Below, in pieces: positions 1,302 to 56,303 of a stretch of 56,303 nt of DNA; position 1 is the stretch's first letter, and every line of letters begins with the position of its first letter. Below the pieces are notes generated by a model. That model saw only the letters and a program-made list of their open reading frames with translations, was not told the origin of the DNA and made no database searches. The DNA comes from Anaerolineae bacterium (lineage in GTDB: Bacteria; Chloroflexota; Anaerolineae; B4-G1; DUEL01), in assembly GCA_034435295.1 (NCBI GenBank), contig DAOTYD010000239.1, positions 1 through 56,303 on the forward strand. Reading direction: 5' to 3'. The translations under genes and the position numbers were made by a program.

Positions 1302-3608
1302 TCACTCTTTCCCTGCCGGGCGGTCCTGGGCGAGGGGGCGCAGCGGCAGGCTGAAAGTGAACGTCGAACCCTGGCCAACCTGGCTCTCCACCCAAATCCT
1401 GCCGCCGTGCATTTCGACGAACTCTTTGCTCAGGGCCAGGCCCAGGCCAGCCCCTTCGGGCCGGCGGCCGTTCTCCAGCGTCCCCTGTTCAAAGCGCTCA
1501 AAGATGCGCTCGTGGTCCTCCGGCGGGATGCCGATGCCGGTGTCGGAGATGCTGACATAGATCCAGTCCGCGTCCGCCCAGGCCCGCACGCGAATCTCCC
1601 CTGTCTCGGTGAAGCGGGCAGCGTTGCTCAGCAGCCCCAACAGCACCTGGCGGATGCGCGCAGGGTCAGCCTGCACCAGGGGCAGGTCTGGCGCGATCTC
1701 CTCACGAAGGGCAATGCTCCGCCCGCGTACCAATGCGCTGGTGGTGACCATCACACTGTGCACCAGATCGGCCAGGTCGATCTGGCGGAATTCGAGCTCC
1801 ATCAGCCCGGCTTCGATCTGGGAAAGGTCTAACAGGTCATTGATCAGCCCCAGCAAATGGCGGCCATTCTGGAGGATGATTTGCAGGTCCTCACGCTGCC
1901 GTGGCGTGAGCGGCGCGTCGATCTCTTTGAGCATCAGTTGTGAAAAGCCCAGGATGTTGGTCAAAGGCGTGCGCAGTTCCCGTGACATGTTGGACAGGAA
2001 GCGGCGCTTGGACTGGTCCAGCTCCTTCAGGCGCTGGACAGCTTCTCGCTCCACGGCATAGGCTCGGGCGTTCTCCAGCGCCGCCGCCACCTGCTGGGCT
2101 ACGTTCTGCAGCACAGAGACCTCGTCGTGGTCGAACTCGTGCTCCTCCAGGCTTTGCACGCCGAGCACGCCGAGCACGCGCCCGCCCCACAGCAGCGGCA
2201 AGGCCACCTCGCAGTGGGTGTAGGAAGCGGTCGGGCCGACGGTCACCGTCAAGGGATAGCTCTCGACTACCGGCTGCCGCTCGCGGAAAGCGCGGCCAAT
2301 CGGCCCGGCCACAGCAGCAAGCGCCGCGTCGCCATGCACAGAAATCGGCTGCCCTGCTGAGGCTGCCAACGTCAACTCCTCTCCGTTCACAGTGTATACC
2401 ACAACGTGCGAGTAGACAAATCGCTCCCGCACGACCTCGACCACGCGCTTGAGCAACAGGTCGGGGTCGCGGATCGAAGTAATGGCCCGGCCAACCTCCA
2501 GGCTGGCCTGCATCTGGATAGCGCGGCGTTGGATCAAATAGTTGGCCCTTTGCAGCAGTTCAGTGCGCTGGGCTACTTTGGCTTCCAGGTCGCTGTAGAG
2601 CACCGCCAGTTCGGCGCTCATGCGGTTAAAGACGTGGGCCAGGATACCGATTTCGTCGCGGGAGTTGACCTCCACTTTTTGCGACAGGTCGCCAGCGGCG
2701 ATGCGCAGCGCCGACTCGGTGAGCTGGACGACAGGGCGGGTGATCTGCCGCGCCACAAAGGCCGCGCTGACCGCGGTCAACATGGCCACGCCCAGCGCAA
2801 AAGCGACCAGCGCGGTGACCAGGGCATCGTTGCTGGCAAAGGCCTCCTGCTGCGATTGCTCGACAAAGAGCGCCATCTCTGCCTCTGGCAGCCAGCGGTA
2901 GGCACCGATAACCGGCGTGCCTTCGTAATCGCTATATAACCCCACCCCCCCCTCGCCGCCGCTCAGCGCGGCGTCGATCACGGAGCTGGAAACCTGCCGG
3001 CCCTGCGGGAAAGCCATCCCCAGTCGATCCACCACATAGACCCGACCGGTCTGGCCCAGGCCGGCCGTCTCTGCCAGCATGCGGCTCAGCGCGTCCGGCG
3101 GCACACGCATGGCGATGTAAGGCCAGCGCGGATCGTCCAATGGGACGACCAGGACAATGCCTGGATTACGGCGGTAGATGAGGGAAAGGCGCGGCGACTC
3201 TGCGTCAGCGGGCAAAGCAAGGACATCGCCCTCCCATCCCGGCGCGCTGGCGCACTGCACCTGCCCCCTGGCGTTCAACAGGGCCAGATCGACGTCGCCC
3301 CACTGCGCGGCAACGCCGGCAAGACAACTGCAAACAGCAGTGCTCCCCGCGGTCAGGCATGAGCGGATGTCGAGAGAAGACAGCGCCGCTCTCTGCTCTT
3401 CCACCCAGCGGACGATCTGGGCCTCTTTCGACGTTGCGACGGAGGCCAGTTTGTCCATCACCTCGTGTTGAATGTTGAGGCGGCTACGGCTGGTGGCGTA
3501 CCAGCTCACGGCACTGAGAGGGAGAATCGCCAGGACGAGGAAAGCCGTCAGGAGGGTACGTCCCAACCCACCACGCAGCCCAATGTCCGGCACCTTTTCC
3601 GCGCTCAT
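1302..3608 (-). CDS. Sensor histidine kinase (periplasmic sensor, HAMP, GAF, HisKA, HATPase_c)
   Basis: HAMP ITRPVVQLTESALRIAAGDL. H-box SNMSRELRTPL. ATPase boxes LLSNAARFT, DTGIGIPPED and GLGLALSKEFVEMHGG. Start trimmed to M35 (GAGGAAAG upstream). Confidence 0.85.
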   Translation of the reverse strand: MSAEKVPDIGLRGGLGRTLLTAFLVLAILPLSAVSWYATSRSRLNIQHEVMDKLASVATSKEAQIVRWVEEQRAALSSLDIRSCLTAGSTAVCSCLAGVAAQWGDVDLALLNARGQVQCASAPGWEGDVLALPADAESPRLSLIYRRNPGIVLVVPLDDPRWPYIAMRVPPDALSRMLAETAGLGQTGRVYVVDRLGMAFPQGRQVSSSVIDAALSGGEGGVGLYSDYEGTPVIGAYRWLPEAEMALFVEQSQQEAFASNDALVTALVAFALGVAMLTAVSAAFVARQITRPVVQLTESALRIAAGDLSQKVEVNSRDEIGILAHVFNRMSAELAVLYSDLEAKVAQRTELLQRANYLIQRRAIQMQASLEVGRAITSIRDPDLLLKRVVEVVRERFVYSHVVVYTVNGEELTLAASAGQPISVHGDAALAAVAGPIGRAFRERQPVVESYPLTVTVGPTASYTHCEVALPLLWGGRVLGVLGVQSLEEHEFDHDEVSVLQNVAQQVAAALENARAYAVEREAVQRLKELDQSKRRFLSNMSRELRTPLTNILGFSQLMLKEIDAPLTPRQREDLQIILQNGRHLLGLINDLLDLSQIEAGLMELEFRQIDLADLVHSVMVTTSALVRGRSIALREEIAPDLPLVQADPARIRQVLLGLLSNAARFTETGEIRVRAWADADWIYVSISDTGIGIPPEDHERIFERFEQGTLENGRRPEGAGLGLALSKEFVEMHGGRIWVESQVGQGSTFTFSLPLRPLAQDRPAGKE

Positions 3609-3633
3609 GCTTTCCTCGACGAGCGGTAACTGT

Positions 3634-3732
3634 CTACCCTCCCGCAGGTTTGGGCGCAATTTCCGCAGTGGAGCGCCCCGCAATGAGCCACCTGCCCTCT
3701 TGCCCACCACTTTCTAACCTGCGGGAGGGTAG
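3634..3732. repeat. Perfect 17-bp inverted repeat pair flanking 65 nt (MITE/REP-like)
   Basis: ctaccctcccgcaggtt (3634-3650) and aacctgcgggagggtag (3716-3732), in the 5' region of the histidine kinase gene. Confidence 0.8.
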
Positions 3733-4761: not shown

Positions 4762-5559
4762 CTACAGCGGTGAACCGAGATGCCGCGTCACCAGCTCCTG
4801 GCCCTCTGGCCCCAGAACCCACTGCATAAACGCGCGAGCTTCCCCTTGAGGCTCGCCAGGCGTGACCAGGAAGAGGACATAGGCCAGAGGCGCACCAGCG
4901 CGGCGCGCTGCGGCCGGAAGTACCCCATCGACCGCCACGACGCGCACATCGCCGTCGAGGCGGGAGAGGGGAACATAACCAATCGCACCTGGCGTCGACG
5001 CCACCGCCGCCAGCACGCCAGCGTCGTCGGCGACCGCCAGCGCCGTCAGCGTCACGTCGTACCCATCCATCACCTCCGCCTCGAACAGCGCCCGCACTCC
5101 CGAGCCGGCCTCGCGGCTGACCACCTGCACAGGCGTGCCGTCGGCCCATTCGCCGATGCGCCCGCGAAAGATCTCGCGCAACGTCTCGCGGTCGAGCCCT
5201 TCGACCGGCACGGCGGGATGGACGATCACGGCAATGGCATCGCTGGCAAAGGGGAGCAACCACAGGTCCACCTCCCCGCCTGGCCAGGCCAGCGCCGCCA
5301 GGTCAGCCGCGCCTGTGCGCAACCGCTCCTCGGCCACTGCGTCGTCGAACACCTCGACCTCGACCACAGCCCACGGATGCGCCGCCTGATAAGCCACCGC
5401 CAGCTCCTCCATCAGCGGCCCGCAGGCGTCCGTCGCCACCAAATGCAAGGTAGTGGGCTCTGATGTCGTCACAACCGGCGCAGGCGAGGTGCAGGCAGAC
5501 AAAAGCAGAGCGATGAACGACAGGCGACAGGCGAGGAGCGATAAACGACCCGCGCCCAC
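4762..5559 (-). CDS. PstS-family (PBP-like type 2) substrate-binding lipoprotein
   Basis: Lipobox LLSAC. SREAGSGVRALF and PGAIGYVPLS motifs typical of phosphate-binding PBP_like_2 proteins. Confidence 0.7.
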   Translation of the reverse strand: MGAGRLSLLACRLSFIALLLSACTSPAPVVTTSEPTTLHLVATDACGPLMEELAVAYQAAHPWAVVEVEVFDDAVAEERLRTGAADLAALAWPGGEVDLWLLPFASDAIAVIVHPAVPVEGLDRETLREIFRGRIGEWADGTPVQVVSREAGSGVRALFEAEVMDGYDVTLTALAVADDAGVLAAVASTPGAIGYVPLSRLDGDVRVVAVDGVLPAAARRAGAPLAYVLFLVTPGEPQGEARAFMQWVLGPEGQELVTRHLGSPL

Positions 5560-13110: not shown

Positions 13111-13133
13111 GCTTATCGCTTATCGCTTATCGC
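13111..13133. repeat. Heptamer tandem repeat (GCTTATC)x3
   Basis: gcttatcgcttatcgcttatcgc lies in the 5' UTR of the acylase gene. It belongs to the GCGATAA/GCGTATC family seen at 5 other loci. Confidence 0.8.
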
Positions 13134-43923: not shown

Positions 43924-44035
43924 GCGTATCGCGTATCGCTTATCGCTTATCGCGTATCGCTTATCGCCTGATGTGATATGCGATTAGCGATATGCAATAA
44001 GCGATTAGCGATCAGCGATCAGCGATCAGCGATAG
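43924..44035. repeat. Inverted pair of heptamer arrays: (GCGTATC/GCTTATC)x6, spacer, (GCGATNA)x8
   Basis: Left array 43924-43967 and right array 43980-44035, in opposite orientation. The right array contains the last 5 codons and the stop of nifS. Confidence 0.8.
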
Positions 44036-46490: not shown

Positions 46491-46994
46491 CTAGAACTTG
46501 ATGAACCTGTCCTTGGGCGCGCCGCACAGCGGGCAGCGGTCGGGCGCCTCGCCCTCCACCGTCCAGCCGCAGACCTCGCAGACGTGAATGGGGCCGACCT
46601 CGACATCCTGCCCGGCCATGACGGCCTGGCGGGCGCGCTGGTACATGCCGGCGTGGACCTTTTCGGCCTCGTAGGCGAACTTGTGCGAGCGCAGCGCCAC
46701 CTTTTCCTCCTGTAGCTCGGCCACAGCCTGGAAGGCGGGGTACATCTCGTCGACCTCGTAGGTCTCGCCGTTGATGGCCTCCTGCAGGTTCTCCTCGCTC
46801 TGGTTGATGCCGCCCAGGGCGCGCAGGTGGCTGGTGGCGTGGACGAGCTCAGCCCTGGCCACAGCGCGGAAAAGGCGCGCGACCTCGGGCAGGCCCTCTT
46901 TCTCTGCCTTGTCAGCATAGATTGTGTAGCGGGTGAAGGCCTGGCTCTCCCCGGCGAAAGCGGCCTCCAGGTTGGAACGACTCATCTTGTGCAT
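46491..46994 (-). CDS. rbr: Rubrerythrin
   Basis: FAGESQAFTRY..ARAELVHA..YEAEKVHAGMY plus CEVCGW...CPLCGA. Confidence 0.88.
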   Translation of the reverse strand: MHKMSRSNLEAAFAGESQAFTRYTIYADKAEKEGLPEVARLFRAVARAELVHATSHLRALGGINQSEENLQEAINGETYEVDEMYPAFQAVAELQEEKVALRSHKFAYEAEKVHAGMYQRARQAVMAGQDVEVGPIHVCEVCGWTVEGEAPDRCPLCGAPKDRFIKF

Positions 46995-47044
46995 CTTTCC
47001 TCTCCTTTCTGATCAAAATCCATGTAATCTGTGGCTAAAAAACC

Positions 47045-48259
47045 TCACCCGAGCAGCTCCTTGAGATCGAAATCGTCATCCAGCAATCGGTCGACATAGG
47101 CCGAGACGTCCACCCCGCCTTCGAGCAGGCGGCGGACGGCCAGCGTGCGCTCGCGCTCGTTGAGCAGAATGGCGCCAATGATCCGCCCGTCCTGGAGGAC
47201 GAACTTGCGATAGTGGCGATGGGCCAGGTCGACGTGACGCAGCACGGTGTAGGAGGAGTCCTCGCCAGCACAGAGGCCCAGCGAGGTCAGCTCGGCGCCG
47301 GCGACTTTGAGCGTGGTGAAGGGCAGCGTGCCCCCGTAGACAGCGCTGCCCGGCGCGACCATGTTCGCTGCCGCCACGCGGGCCTGCTCGACCGCCGCCG
47401 GGACAATGCCGTAGAGCCGCCCGCCCGCCTCGGCGACGTCGCCTGCCGCATAGACGCCCTCGGCGCTGGTCTGCAGGTGTGCGTCCACAATCACCGCGCG
47501 GCCGATAGCCAGCCCGGCCTGCCGCGCCAGCGTCAGCTCGGGCCGCCAGCCGGCAGCACAGACGACCATATCGGCGGGGAGCTCGTGGCCGTCGCGCAGG
47601 CGCACGGCGCGCACAGCGCCATCCCCCAGGATAGCTTCCGTGGCAACGCCGGTGAGCACCTCGATGCCCAGGCCCTCGACCAGCTTCTGCAGCAGCGCTG
47701 CCCCCTCGCGATCGACCTGGCGGGGCAGCAAATAGTCGGCGGCTTCCAGAACGGTCACTCCGGCGCCCAGGGCGCGGACGGCGCGCGCCGTTTCCAGGCC
47801 GAGCAATCCTCCGCCGATCACGACGGCATGGCGCCCCTGACGGGCATGCTCGCGGATGGCACGGGCGTCGTCGAGCGTGCGCAGGGTGAACACGCCGCGC
47901 TGCGCCGCCCCATCGACCGGCAACATCCAGGCATAGCCCCCCGTTGCCAGCAATAGCCGGTCATAAGCGACGGCCACGCCATCTTCCAGGCGCAGCCGCC
48001 GCGCGGCCGTGTCCAGCTCTGCCACCCGGCTGTTCAGATGAACGCGGATGCCCTGTTCCTCGTACCAGTCAGGCGGGCGGTGGAGGATGTCTACCTCGGC
48101 AACCTCGCCGGCGATCAAAGCGGGTAGCTGCGGACGGCGGTAGTAGGGATAAGGCTCGGCGGCGTAGATGTGCAGGTCAGCGCCCGGCTCGGCCGCAGCG
48201 ATGGCCTGGGCCGCCATCACACCGGCGACGCCATTGCCGACGATGACATAGCGGGTCAT
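47045..48259 (-). CDS. FAD-dependent NAD(P)H:rubredoxin oxidoreductase-like pyridine-nucleotide-disulfide oxidoreductase
   Basis: VIVGNGVAGVMAA (FAD). VVIGGGLLGLETA (NAD). YAAGDVAE. Immediately downstream of the rubredoxin gene. Confidence 0.8.
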   Translation of the reverse strand: MTRYVIVGNGVAGVMAAQAIAAAEPGADLHIYAAEPYPYYRRPQLPALIAGEVAEVDILHRPPDWYEEQGIRVHLNSRVAELDTAARRLRLEDGVAVAYDRLLLATGGYAWMLPVDGAAQRGVFTLRTLDDARAIREHARQGRHAVVIGGGLLGLETARAVRALGAGVTVLEAADYLLPRQVDREGAALLQKLVEGLGIEVLTGVATEAILGDGAVRAVRLRDGHELPADMVVCAAGWRPELTLARQAGLAIGRAVIVDAHLQTSAEGVYAAGDVAEAGGRLYGIVPAAVEQARVAAANMVAPGSAVYGGTLPFTTLKVAGAELTSLGLCAGEDSSYTVLRHVDLAHRHYRKFVLQDGRIIGAILLNERERTLAVRRLLEGGVDVSAYVDRLLDDDFDLKELLG

Positions 48260-48270
48260 ACGAAGCGGCT

Positions 48271-48429
48271 TTACCCTACCTGCTCGAACATATCCTTGCC
48301 TGCGCCGCAGTCGGGGCAGACCCAGTCATCGGGCAGGTCTTCGAAAGCAGTGCCAGGCTCGATACCCCCTTGCGGATCGCCAACAGCGGGGTCGTAAACG
48401 TAACCACAGACCAGACATTCCCACTTCAT
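48271..48429 (-). CDS. rub: Rubredoxin (52 aa; below the ORF-track size cut-off)
   Basis: My own translation of the complement: [60 protein letters not shown]. Canonical CxxCG...CPxCG. Confidence 0.85.
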
Positions 48430-48495
48430 GATTCTTTCTCCTTGTCAAGATAAATTGTGAGGAGCACCCTTTGCGAAAAGAGAGCGCAGGCAGTA

Positions 48496-48524
48496 ATTAT
48501 AACGTGTGTCGCTGAAAACGTCAA
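48496..48524 (-). promoter_or_regulatory. Sigma70 promoter of the rubredoxin/rubrerythrin operon
   Basis: On the minus strand, TTGACG (48524-48519), a 17-nt spacer, then TATAAT (48501-48496). Confidence 0.55.
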
Positions 48525-48579
48525 GCCAGCTTTCCGGGACGTATCAGATTGGGGACATGGCGGGAGGTTTATGATGCCA

Positions 48580-48799
48580 CCCTGGGAGCGCGGACGTCCC
48601 CTCCGCGCTGCGGCGGGCGGGGACGCCCGCGCTCCCAGAAAACACGGATGCCCCCTCCGCCCTGCGGCGGGCGGGGACGCCCGCGCTCCCAGGAAACACG
48701 GATGCCCCGTCCGCCCTGCGGCGGGCGGGGACGCCCGCGCTCCCAGGAAACACGGATGCCCCCTCCGCGCTGCGGCGGGCGGGGACGCCCGCGCTCCCC
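48580..48799. repeat. 54-nt tandem repeat, about 3.8 copies
   Basis: Equivalent positions at 48602, 48656, 48710 and 48764. Each unit holds the hairpin gcgggc-gggga-cgcccgc. It explains the long ORFs in all frames here. Confidence 0.85.
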
Positions 48800-48872
48800 G
48801 CCCAACCTTCGCTTCGCCGCCTTCGGCGGCTCGTTCAGTACACTCTCGATTTCCTGGGCTTCGGATTTCCGG

Positions 48873-48900
48873 TTGCGACCCTGCCACGTTATGGTATAAT
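48873..48900 (+). promoter_or_regulatory. Promoter of the aspS leader
   Basis: TTGCGA (48873-78), a 16-nt spacer, then the extended -10 TGgTATAAT (48892-48900). Confidence 0.5.
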
Positions 48901-48915
48901 TTGACCGAGGTCTCT

Positions 48916-48990
48916 ATGTCACACCGCGCAGCGTTCAACGACGACGACCAGCCGACCCGTCCCAGGGGACGGTCCGTGCTGCGCGGTTGA
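48916..48990 (+). CDS. Candidate 24-aa attenuator leader peptide [24 protein letters not shown]
   Basis: GAGG lies 5 nt upstream of the ATG. Codons 8-11 are AAC GAC GAC GAC. The ORF overlaps hairpin arms that can alternatively pair with the downstream terminator. Confidence 0.45.
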
Positions 48991-49011
48991 AAATGCGTTT
49001 TGCCAGACCAG

Positions 49012-49043
49012 GCCGTCCCCAGCGGGGCGGCTTGTTCTTTATT
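49012..49043 (+). terminator. Attenuator terminator in the aspS leader
   Basis: GC-rich 8-bp stem (gccgTcccc-agc-ggggcggc, one bulge) followed by UUGUUCUUUAUU. It ends 15 nt before the aspS ATG. Confidence 0.55.
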
Positions 49044-49057
49044 CCGGAGGTGCAAGG

Positions 49058-50827
<1,770 letters not shown>

Positions 50828-50847: not shown

Positions 50848-50889
50848 GCGATAAGCGATATGCGATGTACGATAAGCGATATGCGAAGG
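50848..50889. repeat. Heptamer tandem repeat (GCGATAA-like)x6
   Basis: gcgataa gcgatat gcgatgt acgataa gcgatat gcgaagg, in the aspS/glnA spacer. Confidence 0.75.
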
Positions 50890-50897
50890 AGGGAACA

Positions 50898-52229
50898 ATG
50901 AACAAGGAGCTAATCCGCCGCGCCAGGGAGGACGGAGTTCGCTTTGTCAGCCTCCAGTTCACCGACATCCTGGGTGCGGTCAAGAGCGTGACGATTCCCC
51001 TGGGTCGGCTGGAGAGCGCGCTGGAGGAGGGGGTCTGGTTCGATGGCTCCTCTATCGCCGGCTTTGCCCGCATCTATGAGAGCGACATGGTGCTGATGCC
51101 CGACCCGGCAACCTATCGGGTGCTGCCCTGGAGCGACCCGGAGCGGCGACGGGCGCGGCTCATCTGCAACGTGCACGGGCCGGACGGTCAGCCCTCTCCC
51201 AGCGATCCGCGCTCGGCGCTCAGGCGGATGCTGGCCCGCGCCGGCGAGCGCGGTTACGTCTACAACGTGGGGCCGGAGATCGAGTTCTTTCTCTTCAAGC
51301 GCGACGGCGCGACCCCCCTGCGCCCCGTCCCCCACGACGTGGGCGGCTATTTTGACTTTTCGCCGCGCGACGAGGCGCAGCAGGTGCGCAGCGAGATCAT
51401 CCTGGCGCTGGAGACGATGGACATCGCCGTAGAGACGAGTCATCACGAAGGGGCCACCGCCCAGCACGAGATCGATTTTCGCTATGCCGACGCCCTGACC
51501 AGCGCCGACAACGCCATCACCTTCAAGTACGCCGTGCGCGCGGTCGCTGCCAGCCACGGCCTTTACGCCAGCTTTATGCCCAAGCCGATCTTTGGCGTCA
51601 ACGGCAGCGGCATGCACTGCCATCAGAGCATCTTTGGGCCGGACGGCCACAATCTCTTCTACAACCCTGGCGACGCCTATTGTCTTTCCCGCATGGCCTA
51701 CCACTTTATCGCCGGACAGTTGGCCCACGCGCGGGCGCTGGCCGCCGTCGTCGCCCCGACCGTCAACAGCTACAAGCGCCTTACCCCAGGCTATGAAGCG
51801 CCGGTCTATATCTGCTGGGCGCACCTCAACCGCTCGGCGCTCATCCGCGTCCCGGCGGCGCGGGCCAACGTGGAAAAGGCGGCACGCCTCGAGCTGCGCT
51901 GCCCCGACCCCAGCGCCAACCCTTATCTGGCCTTTGCCGCCAGCCTGGCCGCCGGCCTCGACGGCATCGAACGCCAGTTGGAACCGCCCCCGCCGGTCAA
52001 CGAGGACGTGTACGACCTGGACAGCGGCGGCCTGAAGGAGCGGGCCATCGGCGTCCTCCCCGGCACGCTGGCCGAGGCGCTGGACGAGCTGGAGCGCGAT
52101 GAGGTGATCCAGGCTGCGCTCGGCCCGGCGATCACTGAGACGATGCTGCGGGCGCGGCGGGCGGAGTGGGACGCCTACCGCATCCAGGTCACGGAGTGGG
52201 AGCTGGAGCGCTACCTGGAGACGGCCTGA
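50898..52229 (+). CDS. glnA: Glutamine synthetase, type I
   Basis: VRFVSLQFTDILG, DGSSIAGF, NGSGMHCHQS and the NSYKRL region. Start trimmed to MNKELIR, with GGAGGG upstream. Confidence 0.9.
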   Translation: MNKELIRRAREDGVRFVSLQFTDILGAVKSVTIPLGRLESALEEGVWFDGSSIAGFARIYESDMVLMPDPATYRVLPWSDPERRRARLICNVHGPDGQPSPSDPRSALRRMLARAGERGYVYNVGPEIEFFLFKRDGATPLRPVPHDVGGYFDFSPRDEAQQVRSEIILALETMDIAVETSHHEGATAQHEIDFRYADALTSADNAITFKYAVRAVAASHGLYASFMPKPIFGVNGSGMHCHQSIFGPDGHNLFYNPGDAYCLSRMAYHFIAGQLAHARALAAVVAPTVNSYKRLTPGYEAPVYICWAHLNRSALIRVPAARANVEKAARLELRCPDPSANPYLAFAASLAAGLDGIERQLEPPPPVNEDVYDLDSGGLKERAIGVLPGTLAEALDELERDEVIQAALGPAITETMLRARRAEWDAYRIQVTEWELERYLETA

Positions 52230-54864: not shown

Positions 54865-56091
54865 ATGCGTAAGCGAGACTATATCGGCATGAACGTCTAC
54901 TGGTTCGGCCTGGCCTTTCTGTGGAACGGCCTGCACCCCATCATCCTGCCGGCAATGCTGTTGGGCTTTGTGCCGGAAGCGCTCAAGAACACTTACCTGG
55001 GCAGCCTCACCTTCGGCGGTCTGATCCTGGCCATGGTCATACAACCGCTGGCCGGCGCGCTCAGCGACCGCACGCGCTCGCGCTGGGGGCGGCGACGGCC
55101 CTGGATCCTGCTGGGTGTAATTCTCACCCTGATCGTTCTGGCCATTATGGCCCGCGCCAGCAGCCTGGGGGTGCTGATCCTGGCCTACGTTCTGCTGCAG
55201 CTCGTCTCCAATACCGCCCATGGCCCCGCCCAGGGCCTCATCCCCGACCTGGTGCCGCAGGAGCGGCATGGGCTGGCAGCGGGGATCAAAAACCTCTTTG
55301 AAATGAGCGGCCTGATCGTGACCTCGCTGGTGGCCGGCAAGCTGATGAGCGATGGCAACGCCGCGCTGGCCCTGACCGTCACCGGCGTCGTCGTCACGGC
55401 GGCCGCAGGGGTCACCCTGGTGGGCACGCCCGAAGCGCCCGCCAGCGGCGCCGGCGGCCCGGCCGCTGTCCAGGCGCTGCGCGAGACCCTGCGCGTCGAC
55501 CTGAGCCGTGCTCCTGGCTACGCCCGTCTGCTCGTCTCCCGCTTCCTGATCCTGTTGGGCATCTATGCCGTGCAGGCCTTTGCCCAGTATTATATCCGCG
55601 ACCGGCTGCAAGTGCCAGACCCCGCCGCCGTTACCGGCAACCTCATGGCTACCATCGGCCTGGCGCTGACGGTGCTGGTCTTTCCCGCCGGCTACCTCTC
55701 CGACCGCTTTGGCCGTCTACGGCTGAACCAGTTGGCGGGCATCCTGGCTGCGCTGGGCGTGCTGATGCTCATTCCCATCCGCACGGTTCCCCCTCTCTAC
55801 ATCGCCGGGACAATCATCGGCGCAGCGACGGGCATCTTTTTGAGCGTCAACTGGGCGCTGGCGACCGACATGATTCCCCAGGACGAGGCCGGCAAGTACC
55901 TGGGCCTCTCCAACCTGGCGACGGCCGGCGCCGGAGCCGCCAGCCGCCTGGGCGGCCCGCTCATCGACGGCCTGAACGCCCTCCGCCCTGGCGCTTTCCT
56001 GGGCTACCCGGCGCTCATGCTGCTGGCGGCGCTCAGTATCGCTGTGGGTACGTGGCTGGCCAATCGCTTATCGCGGATCGCGTATCGCTAA
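54865..56091 (+). CDS. MFS transporter
   Basis: 12 hydrophobic segments. GALSDRTRSRWGRRRPW loop motif. The last 8 codons (SRIAYR) lie in the heptamer repeat. Confidence 0.8.
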   Translation: MRKRDYIGMNVYWFGLAFLWNGLHPIILPAMLLGFVPEALKNTYLGSLTFGGLILAMVIQPLAGALSDRTRSRWGRRRPWILLGVILTLIVLAIMARASSLGVLILAYVLLQLVSNTAHGPAQGLIPDLVPQERHGLAAGIKNLFEMSGLIVTSLVAGKLMSDGNAALALTVTGVVVTAAAGVTLVGTPEAPASGAGGPAAVQALRETLRVDLSRAPGYARLLVSRFLILLGIYAVQAFAQYYIRDRLQVPDPAAVTGNLMATIGLALTVLVFPAGYLSDRFGRLRLNQLAGILAALGVLMLIPIRTVPPLYIAGTIIGAATGIFLSVNWALATDMIPQDEAGKYLGLSNLATAGAGAASRLGGPLIDGLNALRPGAFLGYPALMLLAALSIAVGTWLANRLSRIAYR

Positions 56092-56303
56092 TCGCGTATC
56101 GCGTATCGCGTATCGCGTATCGCGTATCGCATATCACGTATCGCGTATCGCGTATCGCGTATCGCATATCGCATATCGCGTATCGCGTATCGCGTATCGC
56201 ATATCGGATATCGCGTATCGCGTATCGTGAATTGCGGTCGACGATTGGCGAGAGGCGATAAGCGAGAGGCGATAAGCGAGAGGCGATAAGCGAGAGGCGA
56301 TAG
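56066..56303. repeat. Large heptamer array (GCGTATC)x~23 followed by an opposite-orientation (GCGAGAG GCGATAA)x4, running off the window
   Basis: 56066-56227 has period 7 with point variants (gcatatc, gcggatc, acgtatc). 56248-56303 has period 14. Confidence 0.9.

Follow-up and report, generated by a model that had tools for sequence, protein, structure and literature searches.

Candidate leader-peptide attenuators with asparagine and aspartate codons upstream of aspS in Chloroflexota

The closest described counterpart of the element reported here is the attenuator of pheST in E. coli, where a synthetase gene stands behind a leader peptide (pheM) with a run of cognate codons, and alternative hairpins decide the outcome. 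Leaders with codon runs can also be multivalent, as are those of thr (Thr and Ile) and ilv (Leu, Val and Ile). In Firmicutes, a T-box is found upstream of aspS, the gene for aspartyl-tRNA synthetase (AspRS), or of hisS-aspS. AspRS has a further role in organisms without an asparaginyl-tRNA synthetase (AsnRS), where a non-discriminating AspRS also charges tRNA-Asn and acts together with GatCAB, for which glutamine is the usual amide donor; Thermus AspRS2 (PDB 1N9W, 3KFU) and the P. aeruginosa enzyme (4WJ3) are examples. Here we analyse a 56,303-nucleotide stretch of DNA from an Anaerolineae bacterium (contig DAOTYD010000239.1, called the window throughout), in which aspS is preceded by a short open reading frame (ORF) containing the codons AAC GAC GAC GAC and by two mutually exclusive RNA hairpins. 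Judging from the sequence of this locus and its relatives, we put the probability that the element is a ribosome-mediated (leader-peptide) transcription attenuator of aspS at about 0.82.

The element is a new leader family, with a new specificity, a new target and a new phylum, inside a known kind of regulator. None of the Rfam leader families (Trp, His, Leu, Thr, Phe) and no T-box matched positions 48300-49300 at E<=10, the leader itself matched no Rfam family of any other kind, and a scan of the whole window at gathering score gave no such leader family or T-box either. Nor did we find an aspS or Asp/Asn leader-peptide attenuator described in the searchable full-text literature, though subscription papers may hold one; to this extent the remark of an earlier reading made from the sequence alone (below, the sequence-only reading), that no aspS leader-peptide attenuator was known to it, is borne out. 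An 'aspS tRNA synthetase leader' entry for Shewanella is a structural prediction of unspecified kind (PMC2659441).

All parts of the element lie on the plus strand, and the promoter, Shine-Dalgarno (SD) sequence, 24-codon ORF, Asn/Asp codon run and four pairing segments were all found where the sequence-only reading had placed them. The promoter scan returned a -35-like hexamer, TTGCGA (48873-48878), and, after a 16-nt spacer, an extended -10 box, TGgTATAAT (48892-48900), which together make 10 of 12 hexamer matches plus the TG; two promoter-like sites occur in the 1-kb region against 0.2 expected. This consensus match predicts the start of leader transcription, and the SD-like GAGG read from the sequence at 48907-48910, 5 nt 5' of the leader ATG, probably lies at the very 5' end of the leader transcript. 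The ORF runs from the ATG at 48916-48918 to a TGA at 48988-48990 (24 codons plus stop, 48916-48990), with the putative regulatory codons AAC GAC GAC GAC (Asn Asp Asp Asp) at 48937-48948. Segment 1, GACCCGTCC (48954-48962), can form a local hairpin with segment 2, GGGGACGGTC (48965-48974), which is the 5' strand of the predicted antiterminator, lies within the leader ORF and begins 16 nt past the last Asp codon. In minimum free energy (MFE) folds an outer stem, ACCGCGCAGC (48923-48932) paired with GCTGCGCGGT (48978-48987), surrounds the Asn/Asp run together with segments 1 and 2, its 3' strand ending at the leader stop codon. Segment 3, GGCCGTCCCC (49011-49020), takes part in both alternatives: pairing with segment 2 gives the antiterminator, pairing with segment 4 (49024-49031) the terminator.

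The predicted intrinsic terminator (49009-49034, about -21 kcal/mol) pairs 49009-49019 with 49024-49034 around a CAGC loop. The sequence-only reading had taken its stem to be bulged, but it is continuous over 11 bp, with two G.U pairs and no bulge. A U-rich tract, TTGTTCTTTATT (49032-49043), seen both in the sequence and in the terminator scan, follows, and then the aspS SD sequence GGAGG (49046-49050) and aspS itself (49058-50827), which encodes a bacterial-type aspartate--tRNA ligase of 589 aa (NCBIfam NF001750, 825.6 bits, with the corresponding Pfam domains). The aspS ATG (49058) follows the terminator stem after a gap of only 23 nt, and because the scan found no promoter-like site in this gap, aspS expression appears to need read-through.

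These parts suggest the following course of events. Transcription would begin a few nucleotides past TGgTATAAT, and the 24-codon leader would be translated at once. With plentiful Asn-tRNA(Asn) and Asp-tRNA(Asp), the ribosome would pass segment 2 and reach the stop codon at 48988, leaving segment 3 free to pair with segment 4, and polymerase would terminate at about 49035-49045, 15-20 nt before aspS. If either charged tRNA were scarce, the ribosome would stall on AAC GAC GAC GAC, covering the 5' strand of the outer stem and segment 1 and exposing segment 2 past its leading edge; segment 2 would then capture the emerging segment 3 over 10 bp, no terminator would form, and aspS would be transcribed, probably together with the downstream glnA. 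A leader that is not translated would fold on itself and terminate. Termination, read-through and stalling in vivo are all inferred here from the sequence.

Folding of the leader (48907-49037) with a ribosome footprint forced single-stranded and the A site moved along the ORF largely agrees with this course. With no ribosome, the predicted structure consists of the 11-bp terminator, the 1:2 hairpin (-10.0 kcal/mol) and the outer stem described above. Once the A site is placed on AAC 48937, GAC 48940 or GAC 48943, the fold switches to the 10-bp antiterminator, lengthened by 1:4 pairing and with zero terminator pairs, so that the proposal of the sequence-only reading that a ribosome stalled on the Asp codons favours 2:3 pairing holds for the AAC and the first two GAC codons. 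The same result is obtained with the A site on the last GAC as long as the footprint ends at or before +11, and a ribosome at the leader stop codon returns the terminator. The claim that 2:3 pairing is the more stable alternative did not survive: with its real 36-nt loop the long-range hairpin has -18.8 kcal/mol (-22.6 as a bare duplex), against -21.2 for the terminator.

The comparative evidence comes from 164 related loci, drawn partly from collections of genomes and metagenomes and partly by looking up the closest proteins; the aspS relatives place the window in Chloroflexota, class Anaerolineae/Thermoflexia. The leaders fall into two families, each used to build a covariance model (R1 from family A, which includes the window, and R2 from family B). 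At E<1e-3 the element was matched in 89 of 165 sources (41 R1 and 48 R2 matches, non-overlapping), always on the aspS strand, and all matches that were checked against the aspS start lie about 20-180 nt upstream of it, or, in locus L085, of aspS2. The whole 56-kb window contains a single match, at 48944-49041, and the approximately 945 kb scanned with R1 and R2 gave no match at E<1e-3 away from aspS; weaker signals comprised a single match on the minus strand (E = 0.004) and the echoes that the palindromic terminators give on the reverse strand. In every case the leader is followed by a strong hairpin and a T-tract, ending 20-176 nt 5' of aspS, and 53 of 62 unique leaders have a -10-like box within 70 nt upstream of their ATG. 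The mini-ORF and its alternative pairings, which the sequence-only reading proposed to look for in aligned aspS upstream regions, are thus kept in about half of the related sources.

Evidence that the codons themselves matter comes from two kinds of ORF search. When the 300-320 nt before aspS were screened for short ORFs with at least four Asp/Asn within seven residues, 29/79 and 19/76 loci had such an ORF on the sense strand and none on the antisense strand; examples of the peptides are MSAAWLLIDDNDNPSALPGRPAA, MVTHIVGLIVDNDNQPCGPQGRPTM, MPVHTQNRFATQDDNNNDNNRPGGRGWLRRTR, MNNNNNNAADDAHRAVCCLLPIR and MTLFTWAFTALNDNDNPIWRRARGIRLQMS. To avoid circularity, we also chose ORFs by structure only, blind to codons, taking the best terminator, then the upstream segment with the greatest complementarity to its 5' arm, and then the ATG-initiated ORF that spans this segment. 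By this route 118 of 157 loci had a terminator upstream of aspS and 92 had an ATG-ORF spanning the complement of its 5' arm. In frame, Asn accounts for 19.0% and Asp for 11.7% of the 10 codons before segment 2; the other two frames give 2.2% and 2.0%, and the next most enriched residues, Val and Met, reach only about 2-2.6-fold. The last Asp/Asn codon precedes segment 2 by a median of 9.5-13 nt, a figure to be read knowing that leaders entered the set of 62 unique ones only if their ORF extended beyond the start of segment 2.

Within this set, 54 leaders contain both Asn and Asp codons, seven only Asn and one only Asp, and family-wide the Asn codons outnumber the Asp codons (186 vs 101), with two to nine such codons per leader. 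The window run, with three Asp and one Asn, sits within this range, and what the sequence-only reading had offered as a side remark, a possible response to Asn-tRNA, becomes central. Leader codons also lean towards the wobble-read T-ending form (GAT 71% vs 41% in aspS, AAT 62% vs 36%; p about 1e-9 for the preference), with the window leader itself having C-ending Asn and Asp codons. Since Asn and Asp codons are both read by queuosine-modified tRNAs, a link to queuosine was considered and rejected, His (1.4%) and Tyr (1.7%) not being enriched in the codons before segment 2.

The closest relatives of the window offer a finer view of the same constraint. Three contigs with 98%-identical AspRS (L161-163) cannot be aligned 5' of the window promoter region; the alignment begins a few bases before the -35 hexamer, and from the -35 region to the aspS ATG only three positions differ. 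One is a synonymous GAC to GAT change in the third Asp codon, one a silent CCA to CCG (Pro) change in the 1:2 loop, and the third a single base ahead of the aspS ATG. A fourth locus (L164, 86% AspRS identity) retains NDDDQPT and segments 2-4 unchanged behind diverged N-terminal codons, and its outer stem reads GCGCUGA/UCAGCGC where the window has GCGCAGC/GCUGCGC, a comparison made by eye at this one locus. The silence of the strain-level changes within the ORF suggests that the Asp/Asn run is under coding constraint.

These codon patterns bear on two other ways of reading the leader. A translation-independent RNA switch, in which the leader binds a metabolite, a tRNA in T-box fashion or a protein and the ORF is incidental, would suit the T-box regulation of aspS in Firmicutes and the finding that under half of the leaders have an SD-like motif, and a terminator/antiterminator pair fits an attenuator of any type. 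We nevertheless consider it very unlikely: an in-frame ATG and Asn/Asp codons are the sole family-wide features 5' of segment 2, the enrichment is gone in the other two frames, ORF changes between strains are silent, and the stretch from the ATG to segment 2 is short (about 50 nt), varies in sequence and has no conserved structured aptamer. T-box and other Rfam leader matches are absent from the window (at E<=10 in its leader region), and an Rfam scan at gathering score of the aspS upstream regions of 19 leaderless relatives gave neither a T-box nor a known leader.

The second such reading, that the mini-ORF encodes a functional or arrest peptide of the TnaC or SecM type that senses free Asp/Asn or another signal in the ribosomal tunnel, draws on the common ending P.GRP(T/A)V of family A peptides and on the Pro that often follows the Asp/Asn run. 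However, the 'GR(P)' of this ending is segment 2 itself (GGG CGG CCG), and the reading frame across the GGGCG core of segment 2 differs between the families, giving GGG CGG (Gly-Arg) in A but CGG GCG (Arg-Ala) in B; conservation thus lies with the RNA, not with the peptide. As scored, the peptides are 18-58 aa long and unrelated in sequence outside the Asp/Asn run, and a count of two to nine Asp/Asn codons is as expected for hungry-codon sensing and unlike a defined arrest motif. There is thus scarcely any room for a peptide of this type, and the attenuator remains the preferred reading of the leader.

The second line of evidence is the pairing itself. In family A segment 2 reads GGGCGGC and the terminator AAGCCGCCC-loop-GGGCGGCTT-TTTT; in family B they read (G)TCGGGCGA and aTCGCCCGACGC-loop-GCGgAGGGCGAtTTATTTT. 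We scored each helix in alignments of 37 family B sequences (A2, made with MAFFT) and 30 family A sequences (A3), using the pairing partner slid out of register as control. The 11-bp antiterminator of family B is paired in 81.5% of cells, against 29-46% when slid, with double changes at four pairs (for example G-C in 15 sequences and A-U in 7) and a score that none of 500 shuffles reached. Several of these changes are specific to the antiterminator, because the positions concerned form an interior loop in the terminator. The family B terminator is 90.3% paired (36-44% slid) with 43 double-change cells, and RNAalifold recovered it from this family and nothing else. For family A the antiterminator is 81.5% paired over 10 bp (35-53% slid), with a 7-bp core that is about 100% paired and near invariant, and the terminator is 91% paired (32-53% slid) with 11 double-change cells. 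The window alone has an A-U pair in the antiterminator (G to A in segment 2, C to U in segment 3) where 29 relatives have G-C; the swap is matched by a U in segment 1 and accommodated in the terminator as G.U. Examined singly, 26 of 35 loci have a segment 2:3 duplex stronger than 95% or more of its shuffles. In 58 of 62 loci a predicted hairpin takes in the leader stop codon, with a median z of -0.5 and energies like those of shuffles; compensation of the kind GACG/CGUC vs GGCG/CGCC could be seen by eye in this hairpin.

Several findings weigh against the proposed attenuator and should be set beside this evidence. The leader of the window is not unusually stable (MFE z = -1.13), for which reason we dropped single-sequence thermodynamics as evidence, and when the last GAC occupies the A site and the footprint extends to +13 or beyond, the equilibrium fold goes back to the terminator, so that the attenuator model needs kinetic capture of segment 3. 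A local 1:2 hairpin in fixed register is only 64.8% paired family-wide, the same as the slid controls, and is not supported as a family-wide feature; the segment 1:2 pairing of the sequence-only reading is seen in the window and some relatives (L004, L007, L011, L012 and others) but finds no support as a general feature. About 45% of the related loci have no element, among them Anaerolinea-labelled loci and one with 82% identity (L001) in which aspS directly follows another gene, and it follows that the element is dispensable and not simply tied to the absence of AsnRS. The His motif like that of non-discriminating AspRS, described below, occurs in loci both with and without the leader, and for want of any correlation we rejected it as a marker of leader presence. 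Finally, an SD-like motif precedes just 27 of 62 leaders, against 19% at control positions, and many leaders would accordingly need leaderless or near-leaderless translation. In many family members (L044, L048, L052, L053, L067, L071 and others) the leader ATG is only about 7-16 nt past the -10 box, which would leave little or no untranslated mRNA ahead of it.

Taken by itself, then, the window is statistically unconvincing, and the case against chance rests on the comparative data. This matters for the plainest alternative, in which there is no regulation at all and an ordinary terminator or stabilising hairpin and a chance ORF lie in a GC-rich spacer upstream of an aspS with an unrecognised promoter. 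It can point to the unexceptional window statistics (the z of -1.13, and two terminator-like sites against 0.9 expected) and to the many relatives that do without the element. A plus-strand terminator is not needed at this place, however, as the gene upstream of aspS, for a rubredoxin (48271-48429), is on the minus strand and reads away, and the promoter scan of the 23-nt gap between stem and ATG was empty. Since, moreover, the whole architecture recurs in 89 sources, on the aspS strand only and before aspS, and Asp/Asn-rich ORFs never occur in the antisense controls, we regard the absence of regulation as the most improbable of all the explanations considered. The logic of the trp, his and pheST leaders, to which the sequence-only reading had appealed, is supported by recurrence, by the frame-specific Asp/Asn codons, by the compensatory changes and by folding under constraint.

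The use of both Asn and Asp codons is most likely due to a non-discriminating AspRS. Anaerolinea thermophila has no asnS and has gatCAB, glnS and a single aspS (asnS=0, gatCAB=1, glnS=1, aspS=1; PMC4206432 Table S1), and its one AspRS must also charge tRNA-Asn. The anticodon-binding N-domain of the window AspRS has its best match in the P. aeruginosa Asp/Asn ligase (4WJ3), and the motifs RDHGG and RPEG are common to the window enzyme and three PDB chains deposited as Asp/Asn ligases, with E. coli AspRS having RDLGS and RDEKN at these positions. Residues in these motifs are reported to affect recognition of tRNA-Asn, in work of 2006 by Bernard and co-workers and by Chuawong and Hendrickson. The window AspRS may thus be non-discriminating and the first enzyme in the making of both Asp-tRNA(Asp) and, via GatCAB, Asn-tRNA(Asn).

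One relative presents this connection more directly. At L085 a family-A leader, MIIAHAIRPAVNNNDNDPGAPPGRPAM (R1, 81.7 bits), precedes an archaeal-type aspS2 (460-1755), which is followed by a bacterial-type aspS (1949-3712). The aspS2 product is classed as 'aspartate--tRNA(Asn) ligase' (NF003483, 533 bits vs a cutoff of 353) and has as its best PDB match the Thermus non-discriminating AspRS2 (1N9W, 2.6e-112). Two further loci (L082, L093) also have an aspS2-aspS tandem, cut off there by the contig end. The spacer between aspS2 and aspS at L085 holds another GC-rich tandem repeat.

In the window aspS is followed on the same strand by glnA, for glutamine synthetase (50898-52229; Pfam Gln-synt_N/C), and the 70-nt spacer contains no terminator-like or promoter-like site, which suggests that aspS and glnA are co-transcribed as an operon. 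Same-strand adjacency of the two genes with a short spacer was found at 16 related loci, 14 of which have a family-A leader at E<1e-3, and the pair is given for loci L005-L020, L038, L082, L083, L090, L091 and L094; no family B locus has glnA after aspS. As glutamine is the amide donor of GatCAB, co-regulation of aspS and glnA by way of such a transcript would make sense.

These observations raise the question of which tRNA the leader would respond to. The same attenuator could have essentially Asn-tRNA(Asn), and hence amide-nitrogen or GatCAB flux, as its signal, with the Asp codons playing a minor part, and the excess of Asn over Asp codons (186 vs 101), the seven Asn-only leaders against one Asp-only leader, the glnA gene behind aspS in 14 family-A loci and the aspartate--tRNA(Asn) ligase gene behind the L085 leader would all be in keeping with this. 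Set against them are the three Asp codons to one Asn in the window, the retention of both codons in 54 of 62 leaders and the lack of glnA after aspS in family B, and we think an Asn-only signal unlikely. A broader proposal is that the leader is a dual Asn/Asp 'hungry-codon' sensor of flux through the indirect Asn-tRNA pathway (non-discriminating AspRS, GatCAB and glutamine), driving aspS-glnA or aspS2(ND)-aspS1. We put this forward tentatively, as a possibility that we would not yet bet on. If it were true, a shortage of Asn-tRNA(Asn) would raise the mischarging AspRS and, with it, the glutamine synthetase that supplies the amide donor, and nitrogen assimilation would be tied by regulation to the synthesis of asparagine on tRNA. 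The sensor would then drive an aspS-glnA transcript in a Thermoflexia-like clade that includes the window and aspS2-aspS1 in some relatives, and would make a widespread ribosome-mediated attenuator in Chloroflexota, often on leaderless mRNAs.

Some further features of the loci were recorded along the way. A GC-rich 54-bp tandem repeat (48591-48798, 3.9 copies, 95% identical, with a palindrome in each unit) separates the divergent rubredoxin gene from the aspS promoter; it has no other copy in the window and is absent from the L161-163 contigs. The rubredoxin gene belongs to a minus-strand cluster (46491-48429) with a rubrerythrin-like ORF and a rubredoxin-reductase-like flavoprotein (Pyr_redox_2 and Rubredoxin_C domains), an oxidative-stress module typical of anaerobes that is divergent from aspS. 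Arrays of the heptamer GCGATAN occur at four sites (13114-13133, 43927-44034, 50848-50881 and 56062-56302), with 43 matches against 0.15 expected and at least three of the sites outside long ORFs; the array CGATAAGCGATATGCGA (twice) fills the aspS-glnA spacer, and the largest, of about 24 copies, is near the window end. These arrays could be dispersed short tandem repeats or sites for a regulator. A look for further synthetase genes, made to see whether such leaders are a general strategy, found none among the ten largest ORFs of the window.

In the relatives, six loci without the leader (L018, L021, L024, L026, L029, L032) have a 6S RNA gene (RF00013, 70-83 bits) directly 3' of aspS, at about 4810-5070. 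At six other leaderless loci (L023, L031, L037, L055, L100, L113) aspS is preceded by a small ORF of about 35-40 aa (M.IYS.IA..ETWNGH.YRYPYIARWVE.Q...), which is probably a real small protein gene. Downstream of aspS in L140 (3321-4613) lies a distant class IIb synthetase paralogue with about 25% identity to AspRS.

An aspS attenuator of this type would place Asp and Asn among the few amino acids sensed by leader-peptide attenuation and would give this mechanism a second synthetase gene, after pheST, as a target, in a phylum (Chloroflexota, class Anaerolineae) known almost only from metagenomes. It would place feedback control of aspS on a route other than the T-box, and it suggests a coupling to glutamine synthetase. 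The mixed Asn/Asp codons may be a sequence read-out of one AspRS that serves both tRNAs, in which case leaders found in genome sequences could serve to predict a non-discriminating AspRS and the indirect route to Asn-tRNA. With about 90 natural variants in two subfamilies with compensatory changes, the set is also a resource for studying attenuator evolution, and it defines an RNA/upstream-ORF family that annotation pipelines could take up.

Compared with known systems, the element shares with the trp, his, leu, thr and ilv leaders the position of its codons, some 10-15 nt before the 5' strand of the antiterminator, with the stop codon downstream and the terminator right before the first structural gene. 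Those leaders regulate biosynthesis in Proteobacteria and some other phyla, whereas the leader described here precedes a synthetase gene in Chloroflexota; unlike for them, a 1:2 hairpin in fixed register finds no support across its family, and many of its members are apparently translated from near the mRNA 5' end. The Asn-transamidosome pathway, for which we found no leader-peptide control in the searchable literature, gives a rationale for Asn codons in an aspS leader but is a metabolic pathway and not a regulatory element. With the aspS T-box of Firmicutes the element has in common the regulated gene, charging of tRNA-Asp as the variable and antitermination in the leader; however, the T-box reads uncharged tRNA directly, by means of a specifier codon and the T-box sequence and without translation, whereas here, where T-box models are unmatched, sensing would proceed through the ribosome. 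The strongest likeness is to pheST, where a synthetase gene likewise follows a leader with cognate codons and alternative antiterminator and terminator structures. That system uses Phe codons, belongs to another phylum and has no sequence relation to the aspS leader, which differs further in using two kinds of codon, for the two tRNAs that one enzyme is inferred to serve.

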